From Centroscyllium fabricii (Eukaryota), in contig JBNRSN020000011.1 in assembly GCA_051313645.2 (NCBI GenBank), positions 166,966,001-167,030,000 on the forward strand: a stretch of DNA of 64,000 nucleotides, read 5' to 3'. The stretch's first letter is position 1. Each line of letters begins with the position of its first letter. Below, in pieces: positions 15,682-18,392 of this stretch. Below the pieces are notes generated by a model. The model was not told the DNA's origin and ran no database searches. It saw only the letters and a program-made list of their open reading frames with translations. The position numbers were made by a program, and so were the translations under genes.

Positions 15682-16095
15682 TCTTTGGCCTGTGCCTTGA
15701 CAGCAGGCAGCATGAGGCTTTCATTCGCAGCACCCTGGCCAAACCTTTGAGAGTGCCTATTTCAAACTACATAGGTTCCCTTGGACTTAAGGCACTGGGG
15801 AATTAAGTGTGCTGGAGGCACGCGAAGCGGAAGCAACCCAGCTTCGCCAAATGGAAGAAAAGCGCCGGCAGCAAGAGACTGAGCTCCGGCGGGCAGAGGA
15901 GTCATCAAAGCGGGAGATGGTGAACCTCAGGTCAAAGCTTCAACAGCATGTGCTTCAAATAGAGGAACAAGGAAAAAGAAAAACAGTGCTGAGTTGAAAC
16001 AGCAAATGAATGAGCTGCAAATCCAGCTTAACACTGTCACAGCAGGCCAATGATTTACTGCAGACCAAGGGTACGAACCAACCATGGATGAGAAG

Positions 16096-16372
16096 TGGCG
16101 TATCGTCAATTTACTCAATAAAGTCAAAGACGAGTAGTGACCTTAAACTACAGGCTTTTATTGACTAACTTTGGAGCTATACTCCGAACGAACGAACAGG
16201 AACAGAATGAGTGAGCCCGGTCAGTCCTCACCTATAAAGGGCCTCACCTGGGGGAGGAGTTAGAGGTGTGGCTGACCTGGCTCCACGACAGTGTTGCAAA
16301 CATGGTTACATATACAGGCAATATTGGCAACAATATTGTATTGGTAAACTATGTACAATTACGGTTACCACA
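16096..16372 (-). mobile_element. solo LTR (family A)
   Basis: TGGCGTATCG...TTACCACA, TSD AGAAG. Confidence 0.85.
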
Positions 16373-16392
16373 AGAAGGTGATCCGGTTTGAA

Positions 16393-17961
16393 GCTGGGGT
16401 TTCGCTTGAAAACTGTGTTGAGGTTGGATGAATCGCTAATACTTACAACTTGACAGAAGTTGTAACGGATTGTGGTGGGGCCCAAATGCAGAGACACTGA
16501 AATGTCTTTCTAAAGCAAAACTCCTTTAATATATATAAATAACAAAACCCTCATAAATTGCATTCACACATACACAAATCTATTAAACATCTAAACAAGT
16601 CTTTGCTGAAGACTGGCACAAGCTTCATTACAGTTACAAAATACAAGATAGAAATAGAAATCAAGTTCCATTCGGAACTGGTACAATACTTTCCAAAGTT
16701 GAGTGGAATAGAGTAGAGGAATGCTACGCAGCCAAGCGCATCATTGACCCGAGGAATACATGTCCAAATCCTGAATCCAGGTGGGTGCAAAACTGGATCT
16801 CTTCCGAGTCCGCCCTGCGGTCGAGACTCACTCCAACTGAGTCTTCTGAGGAAGAGAATACCATCCAGAATCCTTGGGACTCCTTGCATACCCTACAGCA
16901 ACGTCCAAACCTGAGTTCGGTTGATAATGACCAAATGTCCAAGGAGTAGATTCTGAACTCTCTTCCGAGTCCGCCCTGCGGTCGAGACTCACTCCCCCGG
17001 AGTCTTCTGAGGAAGAGAATACCTGATCCACTTGCAGGGGGACGCCCTTACACGACAGATGAATGTCCAAGCCTGAACTGCAGAATAGCAGAGTGCAATG
17101 TCAAGGCTGAGTGATATGAGCTCCAAACCCCATTGCCTCTCGAGCAGCTCAGCCTGAGCTGCAGAATAGCAGAGTGCAATGTCAAGGCTGAGTGATATGA
17201 GCTCCAAACCCCATTGCCTCTCGAGCAGCTCAGCCTGAGCTGCAGAATAGCAGAGTGCAATGTCAAGGCTGAGTGATACGAACTCCAAAACCCCATTGCC
17301 TCTCGAGCAGCTCAGCACAGCAACCAACTCTTCCAGTAGTCTGAAGAAAGTCAATCCAATCCAATGAATGTAGCAATTCAATGATCCCGCACCTGCCTCA
17401 TCACTACCTCCAGCTTATGAACCAAACCGGCAAACAGATCATTTGGTGTTAGCCAATAAGCTGAAAGCAATGAGAACAGGGACACACAGGCAAGTGAAAC
17501 AGATAATAGATAAGATTAATAGAATAACAGGGGAACAAGTCCTCAATTCAGCTGTGAGGCCACAACCAAGCTGTCTTTGAAATCTTAAAGGGACAGGCAC
17601 TCTGTGACAGAAGTAGATAAATAGGTAAATAACTTCATTTCTGAAGAATTTCCCGGCACTGCTAAGTACTGGGGAATTTGTGAAACTCCTGTCTGAGAGA
17701 CTTGCCTTTGTGCTTTCAAGCAACAGCCTCAAAAACTGCACTGAACTTGAACTTTTCAAGTCCACCTGTCGTTGGTTGAGATATGCGGGCTCACGGATGG
17801 ATTTTGCCTCAAAGATAATGAAGAATATTAGGTTTCCGCTGATGTCACCACAGGAATTAATTAATCACGTTCAACCGGTGGACTTCATGAGAACGGACAA
17901 TGTTTGCCTTCAATCTGCTACTAGAAGCCAGTAACTATCAGGTGATGCCCTACATGCAACC
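16393..17961 (+). pseudogene. klhl13: kelch-like 13/9 BACK-domain fragment, with stops and frameshifts, split by a solo LTR
   Basis: [40 protein letters not shown]...[42 protein letters not shown] closely matches KLHL9/KLHL13 as recalled. Confidence 0.85.
16461..17609 (-). mobile_element. 1149-bp solo LTR or miniature LTR element with internal repeats
   Basis: TGTAAC...GTGACA termini, TSD GAAGT; three 81-bp units at about 17070-17315; block duplicated at about 16798 and 16959. Confidence 0.8.
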
Positions 17962-18299
17962 TGAAATAGACAAAATCAGTGCTGCCCTCCGGAAAGTTCA
18001 AGATGATAAGGGAGCCGCAGACATAGAAAAGCAGAGCAGAGTGCGTGCAGACCAGCGTGGCAATGAATCCCGTCAGGCTGTGGAGCTGGCTGCTCTCTGT
18101 CAAGAGCTTGAAGAAGATCTGGATACAACCCGTAAAGACCTGATTAAGTCTGAGGAAAGAACTTTGGATTTCCAATTGGAGAGGAAGCTCCAGCATGCAG
18201 GAGCTCAACAGTCAGCAGAGCTTCGCAGTGGAGCTGGAGCTGACGGCCATTCTGTTGCCAGGCAGCAGCTTGAAGCTTTCTTTTTGCGAAAAATGCCAG

Positions 18300-18392
18300 A
18301 AGTCAGACAACAAACACCAGGTTATAGTCCAACAGTTTCATTTTAAATCACCAGCTTTCGGAGCATCTGCCCCTTCGTCAAGGTGAAAGAGC
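18300..18392 (-). mobile_element. Penelope-type terminal repeat remnant with degenerate hammerhead motif
   Basis: ACACCAGGTTATAGTCCAA (also at about 46656); minus strand TGACGAAGGGGCAGATGCTCCGAAAGC. Confidence 0.55.

Follow-up and report, generated by a model that had tools for sequence, protein, structure and literature searches.

The patchwork of coding fragments in the 64,000-nt stretch of Centroscyllium fabricii DNA analyzed here (the window) is, very probably, the variable left part of the LTR of a non-autonomous Gypsy retrotransposon, composed of spliced host RNA that was likely acquired by RT template switching in particles. In this family, a left end of 13-26 nt and a constant part of ~1.1 kb flank the cargo, which the two LTRs of a given insertion have in common. 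Its pieces are spliced and mostly in sense orientation; they meet at short homologies, and their arrangement changes from copy to copy. Judged from motifs for the promoter, the start site, and the U3/R border, the constant part would represent promoter-R-U5, which would place the cargo in U3. The genome searched comprised 7.2 Gb.

A mosaic of host gene fragments in the window

An earlier, sequence-only reading of the window described abutting sense-strand coding pieces interrupted by two TSD-bounded solo LTRs. Both observations hold: the two solo LTRs are present, and ~1.13 kb of mosaic is left once they are removed (Table 1). The six peptides quoted in that reading all lie on the + strand, in shifting frames and with stops present, and no continuous ORF across the mosaic was found among the reading frames of the window. 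In sister copies on contigs C1, C778, C1044, and C113, the pieces are contiguous and both solo LTRs are absent; therefore, the mosaic is not a mis-assembly, a possibility that the earlier reading had named.

Table 1. Features of the LTR copy in the window and of the insertions that interrupt it
Feature	Position	Strand	Remarks
Leftmost surviving cargo	14881-14935	+	14895-14934 is a RAD54-like exon, 95% to C113:139238116-139238077
Nested short repeats (presumably SINE-like) splitting the RAD54-like exon	14936-15690		present elsewhere only in the C113 duplicate
RAD54-like mRNA piece, three exons	15691-15810	+	donor C113:139.23 Mb; GT-AG joins after 15713 and 15774
Coiled-coil exon piece, presumably AKAP17A-like	15810-15901	+	donor C1:265001085, 92%
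Coiled-coil module, presumably CEP83-like	15893-16068	+	no host donor located; recurs in an unrelated Gypsy family
Cargo of ~55 nt	16069-16398	+	split by solo LTR 1; donor not among fetched loci
Solo LTR 1, later insertion	16096-16372	- (inferred from relatives)	TSD AGAAG
KLHL9/13-like BACK piece	16399-17963 (16399-16460 + 17615-17963)	+	96% to C390 exon
Solo LTR 2, later insertion	16461-17609		TSD GAAGT
Coiled-coil exon piece, presumably SMC5-like	17952-18035	+	donor C822:323977115, 89%
Coiled-coil piece, presumably citron-kinase-like	18020-18092	+	18037-18092 matches donor exon C822:472355630, 95%
Liprin-alpha piece	18085-18167	+	donor exon C557:142902151, 95%
Two or three short modules (25-40 nt)	18156-18240	+	other contexts in other copies; no donor located
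LTR constant part, start (putatively promoter-like)	18232-18569	+	interrupted at 18290-18390
Inserted dispersed repeat	18290-18390		absent from C1, C778, and C1044 sisters
Endogenous retrovirus (ERV), later insertion into constant part	18570-29445	-	TSD ATCT
LTR constant part, continued	29446-29529	+	sister alignment
LTR constant part, continued	30075-30419	+	sister alignment
LTR constant part, last surviving stretch	31461-31689	+	final ~200 nt lost behind another insertion

Unlinked host loci were identified as the sources of six pieces (89-96% identity), so that host donors are not confined to the KLHL9/13-like piece, a possibility that the earlier reading had left standing. The two matches which it had named were both recovered. 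For the KLHL9/13-like piece, a host exon is 96% identical over 63+354 nt (L005), Pfam matches are to BACK and Kelch, and the piece begins exactly at the acceptor site of the donor exon; the exon upstream of that donor exon was not found when the donor contig was searched. The liprin-alpha (PPFIA) piece is 95% identical to a host exon over 60 nt (L265), and Pfam LIP-1 is matched in two sister copies. The first stretch, which had been read as TRIM-like, consists instead of three spliced exons of a RAD54-like SNF2 gene, with introns of ~5.3 and ~3.8 kb removed relative to the donor. Here, the SNF2 family label derives from Pfam, which matched a different part of this gene carried by a sister copy. 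The peptide ADQGYEPTMDEKVIRFEAG, previously listed as a piece of its own, is in part the tail of the module before it, read out of frame, followed by ~55 nt of unassigned cargo. Among the fetched loci, no donor was located for three short pieces, and PDB and Atlas searches with the CEP83-like piece gave generic coiled-coil look-alikes only. The names RAD54L, AKAP17A, CEP83, SMC5, citron kinase, PAXBP1, CDKL, PTPDC1, and YBX1 are our presumed assignments, while the Pfam families were computed. An 84-nt copy of the junction between the liprin piece and the next module also occurs on the opposite strand inside the coding region of another Gypsy, within the C1044 sister copy (L018:1501-1584).

The element spans at least positions 14881 to 31689 of the window and is cut by the ERV and other insertions. 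The LTR left end and the earlier cargo were lost before 14881, while AATAAA and the TTACA end both belonged to the lost final ~200 nt. Since both of its own ends are lost, the membership of the window copy in the family rests on sequence identity, which amounts to 90-96% with complete solo sisters and 81-87% with PBS-linked LTRs. The mosaic itself arose by recombination: its left module occurs in ~20 other copies, and its right block in the C1 and C778 copies. The Penelope-type terminus that had been placed at 18300 is an insertion missing from three sister copies, and the element continues beyond it. The window copy is a dead, thrice-interrupted fossil, a decayed solo LTR.

The inserted repeat at 18290-18390, which we take to be Penelope-like, had no Rfam match, and an Rfam search of 14000-32500 returned one chance match. 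A similar piece is present at window positions 46637-46678, and such pieces often form inverted pairs near or in family copies (98 matches across 67 fetched loci, some of which overlap). In the ERV, long reading frames for gag (656 aa) and pol (1540 aa) are still open, and the LTRs are 98.7% identical. It is recent, because it is missing from a segmental duplicate of the window copy that lies ~0.93 Mb away on C113 and has the right flank in common. A 97% local duplication between 13801-14095 and 14934-15736 includes the first 45 nt of RAD54-like cargo.

An LTR family with reshuffled cargo

Complete copies of the family have the form TGTAA...TTACA and begin with TGTAACCCA. We found 84 left ends with at most one mismatch, against 0 in the control, and 18 more of a second subtype; for right ends, two queries gave 347 and 321 first-look candidates (40 scored for each; the sets may overlap). 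The 25 complete copies have a 4-bp TSD, exact in 12, with one mismatch in 11 and two mismatches in 2, and none has a 5-bp TSD. The TSD follows YNNR within a target that leans toward ATG-YNNR-CAT: A, T, and G were present in 30, 34, and 36 of 48 cases at positions -7 to -5, and on the right side C and A were each present in 18/25. The terminal inverted repeat is only 5 bp, and AATAAA lies 166-183 nt from the right end in 21/25 complete copies. The cargo measures 0.6-3 kb (more than 3 kb where unmasked inserts remain) and has a purine content of 52-66%.

Family copies number in the hundreds, but they are not copies of the same mosaic, as nearly every one differs. At least 80% of the cargo was shared in only 2/300 copy pairs, and at least 50 nt in 165/300. 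No upstream flank was common to the 48 left ends compared, three duplicated pairs excepted. Some copies are nested in or fused to other family copies (L193:6193-9287 and L192:1326), and the inner copy at L193 has its own exact TSD.

The constant part opens with one to three GCGCATGCGC-like and TTTGACAGTTGG repeats (window 18395-18569; L259, L261, L262), which we take to be NRF1-, MEIS-, and MYB-like motifs. Many of the donors are presumably meiosis, centrosome, or cilium genes. These motifs and donor types hint at possible activity in spermatocytes.

Two-LTR copies and the internal domain

The family is a non-autonomous Ty3/Gypsy LTR retrotransposon. The copy on C767 is complete, with LTR, PBS, internal domain, PPT, and LTR, and the TSD CAAG is exact on both sides; its LTRs are 87-93% alike, cargo included. 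A two-LTR copy on C1 has lost its left edge, and the cargo common to its two LTRs is 91-98% alike. The PBS is an 18-nt complementarity to a tRNA-Arg(ACG) gene plus CCA. It was found behind the right end in 4/30 older-subfamily copies and in 0/30 sampled window-type copies. One window-type LTR, at C1:188.65 Mb, is linked to a PBS and an internal domain, while another (L361, with one mismatch in the left end) lies behind an internal domain and a PPT. In total, a PPT is present in the C1, C767, and C933 copies and in L361. A tight PBS pattern (gap 0-5) had 11 matches with no PBS among them, because the real gap is 3-16 nt, and a PPT pattern had 3 matches with no 3' LTR among them.

The leader and the start of gag were found at twelve loci. 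The internal domain is comprised of a PNMA-type gag (Pfam PNMA, E 7.6e-9, in the C1 copy), a slippery-type heptamer identified by eye, and seven spliced host Y-box exons. This YBX cold-shock mRNA piece occupies the pol position, and its cold-shock domain (CSD), also matched in Pfam, stands in the pol reading frame directly behind gag. Eight internal stretches of the C1 copy had no Pfam match to protease, RT, RNase H, or integrase, and other internal copies are colinear with that of C1. Differences between the captured YBX and the host gene that occur in at least 80% of copies comprise 5 synonymous and 1 nonsynonymous, and private differences number 17 and 44 (70 and 218 sites); for both sets, the branches are inseparable.

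An autonomous relative encodes PNMA, RT, RNase H, and integrase in a single frame of ~2,100 aa. It has the same PBS as the family, the same first 9 LTR nt, and a similar PPT, while its gag is only 31% identical; it is a candidate helper lineage. Autonomous PNMA-type Gypsy elements with the same tRNA-Arg PBS are abundant (L364-L366; 1,819 first-look candidates with a gag query). A separate multi-copy Gypsy family (L052-L060, e.g. L053:1-3160; copies 90-97% alike) has gag, protease, and then an in-frame host coiled-coil (Pfam CCDC144C, Cast) in the pol position. The module that we take to be CEP83-like, together with its neighbour, is found in this unrelated gag-protease family as well. Modules common to two Gypsy families suggest that exchange may take place in shared particles.

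Spliced, sense, and back-spliced cargo

The exon joins proposed as a check of RNA origin were informative. The RAD54-like, GCFC, and YBX (7 exons) pieces have exact GT-AG exon joins; thus, the cargo originated from RNA. By exon alignment rather than splice-site reading, kinase and phosphatase pieces correspond exon by exon to donors over 43-83 kb, and a bromodomain piece over ~19 kb. The strand bias was assessed with Pfam on the 140 longest of 228 sense stretches and the 140 longest of 271 antisense stretches, excluding nested-transposon matches (1 sense, 5 antisense). Host families were matched by 25/140 sense stretches vs 2/140 antisense stretches, and three of the 25 are weak coiled-coil-type or near-threshold matches. 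The sense families are kinase, bromodomain, FTHFS, GCFC, MAT1, Sds3, myosin tail, LIP-1, CFAP58, CFAP61, KIF21A, TPR, SNF2, and others. Both antisense matches are confined to the first 410 nt of the LTR, a position that would agree with a switch onto mRNA while the plus strand was being made, although these are two cases, one of them weak. The one clear departure from sense orientation is a phosphodiesterase piece that opens the second left-end subtype (L129:4072-4308, - strand; Pfam E 1e-8).

Microhomology was found where it had been suggested to look for it, at the junctions. Four junctions in the window have homologies of 7 nt exact, 10/12, 8 nt exact, and 8/10, given as raw values. For the 7-nt exact junction, a longer sibling piece served as a proxy donor, and two of five junction displays were read by eye owing to indels.

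Two sister copies, but not the window copy, contain exons in back-spliced order. In the C1 sister, four further RAD54-like exons are present, the last of which leads, through an exact join at its end, into the beginning of an exon that lies upstream. In L208, eight consecutive GCFC exons spanning 27 kb are followed by an upstream exon, with a back-splice joint of the right length and 2 mismatches in 10 nt. This cargo ends at the very 5 nt with which it began and is exactly one circle round, as would be predicted if the template behind RT is degraded by RNase H. Back-splice joins were observed in 2/6 multi-exon donors examined, while the kinase, phosphatase, bromodomain, and YBX pieces are colinear.

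Proposed mechanism and alternative explanations

Herein, we propose that the germ-line supply of RT and integrase would come from a related autonomous Gypsy. While making the minus strand, RT would leave the element RNA for a co-packaged mRNA, circRNA, or sibling RNA, and would then return. Only the left att end and promoter-R-U5 would be needed, and the intervening stretch would hence be free to fill with cargo. The cargo would be copied into both LTRs, and LTR-LTR recombination would then leave it behind in solo LTRs. A prevalence of purine-rich coiled-coil codons would follow from their having the most microhomology to an already GA-rich U3. The antisense phosphodiesterase piece is at odds with plain minus-strand capture, and some of the reshuffling may be later DNA recombination. 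The sequence-only reading had offered serial RT template switching and a gene-capturing transposon as two origins of the mosaic. Since the carrier is a Gypsy LTR, these are the same thing: the patchwork is transposon cargo, and serial switching stands as the probable route, but not as a lone event, given hundreds of differently shuffled copies. In a bolder version, which we regard as possible but doubtful, a Gypsy lineage swapped its enzymes for a host YBX cold-shock RNA-binding domain, in frame behind gag, and became an indiscriminate RNA packager, whose dispensable U3 archived hundreds of germ-line RNA pieces, among them circRNAs, and passed them on to other retrotransposon families.

If the LTR family is accepted, its mosaic variety could still be largely post-insertion, produced by gene conversion or ectopic recombination of solo LTRs with existing retrocopies. 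Microhomology is also a mark of DNA repair, and nested, duplicated, and deleted copies do exist. Yet the two LTRs of one insertion have their cargo in common, the same modules recur in the second Gypsy family, the one-round circle fits an RT with RNase H, and several donor searches, which recovered family copies and host exons alone, turned up no free retrocopy. Taken together, these observations make a mainly post-insertion origin improbable.

Even less probable is a carrier of another class, namely a non-autonomous DNA transposon with a Gypsy-like transposase (Ginger) or a Pack-TIR/Helitron-type element capturing genomic DNA or cDNA. Such a carrier would account for the TGT...ACA ends, the 4-bp TSD, the palindromic target preference, and the fact that nearly all copies are single, and in the available text on Ginger elements their ends are said to resemble Gypsy ends (PMC2836005). 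The same text, however, gives inverted repeats of 40-270 bp for Ginger1 and a CCGG or CCGT TSD (PMC2836005), while the family has 5 bp and a YNNR TSD, and its PBS, PPT, gag, two-LTR copies, and spliced, sense-biased cargo all speak for an LTR retrotransposon. Ginger and single-unit models were weighed after the empty PBS and PPT searches and were dropped on the two-LTR copy with one TSD. The chance of a one-off multi-transcript retrocopy by a Penelope or LINE RT, or of an assembly artefact, is close to nil. A Penelope-like piece does adjoin the mosaic, and such pieces occur in many fetched loci, but this one is absent from three sisters and lies inside the constant part. Moreover, there is no poly(A), and the same mosaic is present on four contigs with different flanks; the sister copies ruled this explanation out.

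Significance

On a large natural scale, the LTR family documents what is co-packaged in LTR-retrotransposon particles and how RT changes templates in a vertebrate germ line, with hundreds of junctions in one family vs few cases per species. With back-spliced, one-round cargo, the question of how circRNAs give rise to pseudogenes becomes testable from sequence alone. If the RNA-packager version is true, the one-round circle would be direct evidence that an RNase H-bearing LTR-type RT makes circRNA-derived pseudogenes. The LTRs disperse coding fragments that are 89-98% identical to many single-copy genes and by which gene annotation and read mapping will be misled. Beside a putative LTR promoter, the mosaics may also be raw material for exon shuffling.

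Comparison with known systems

Published precedents exist for LTR-mediated capture, multi-gene chimeras, circRNA pseudogenes near LTRs, and the capture of a CSD by ERVs. A literature search, conducted largely outside subscription journals and repeat databases, found no report of a family with a per-copy host-mRNA mosaic LTR. For the scale, the LTR location, and the circRNA traces, no precedent was found in the available portions of the literature, to which the zebrafish supplement of Tan et al. (2016) may add. The accessible parts of that study describe LTR-mediated retroposition in few cases per species, e.g. 5/7 in zebrafish (PMC5131818). As here, partial intronless mRNA pieces lie inside an LTR retrotransposon with microsimilarity at the switch points, sometimes from at least two parental genes. 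The Drosophila chimeras reported there have two parental genes, whereas here a single family has at least six donors per copy, the cargo is inside the LTR itself, and almost every copy is reshuffled. Maize Bs1, as portrayed in the available passages (PMC5131818, PMC13317346), is likewise an LTR element with exonic pieces of three unlinked genes, but it has 1-5 copies, the same switch points, and a hybrid ORF; in our family, copies are unlike one another, the captured pieces sit within the LTR, and the mosaic is crossed by no continuous ORF. BARE-2 is cited as a case of retrotransposon sequence captured into an LTR (PMC13317346, in part).

In the portions available of Dong et al. (2016), circRNA-derived pseudogenes show back-splice exon order, no poly(A), and an LTR nearby, and their mechanism is called 'mysterious' (PMC4897178). 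In the present family, the LTR that encloses the back-spliced pieces is identified, and one of these pieces is exactly one circle round. The PNMA-type gag with CCHC resembles that of the Gypsy12_DR-type Gypsy elements given, in the available text, as the source of mammalian PNMA genes (PMC3789554), although our family has no pol and is likened to them by a Pfam PNMA match rather than by tree placement. Bird ERVs have captured a cold-shock domain several times independently, in 46 ERVs according to the accessible part of that report (PMC12287698). In our case, the carrier is a Gypsy, and the CSD stands in the pol frame behind gag, replacing the enzymes. The mosaic family is a real, well-supported variant of LTR-mediated retroposition.
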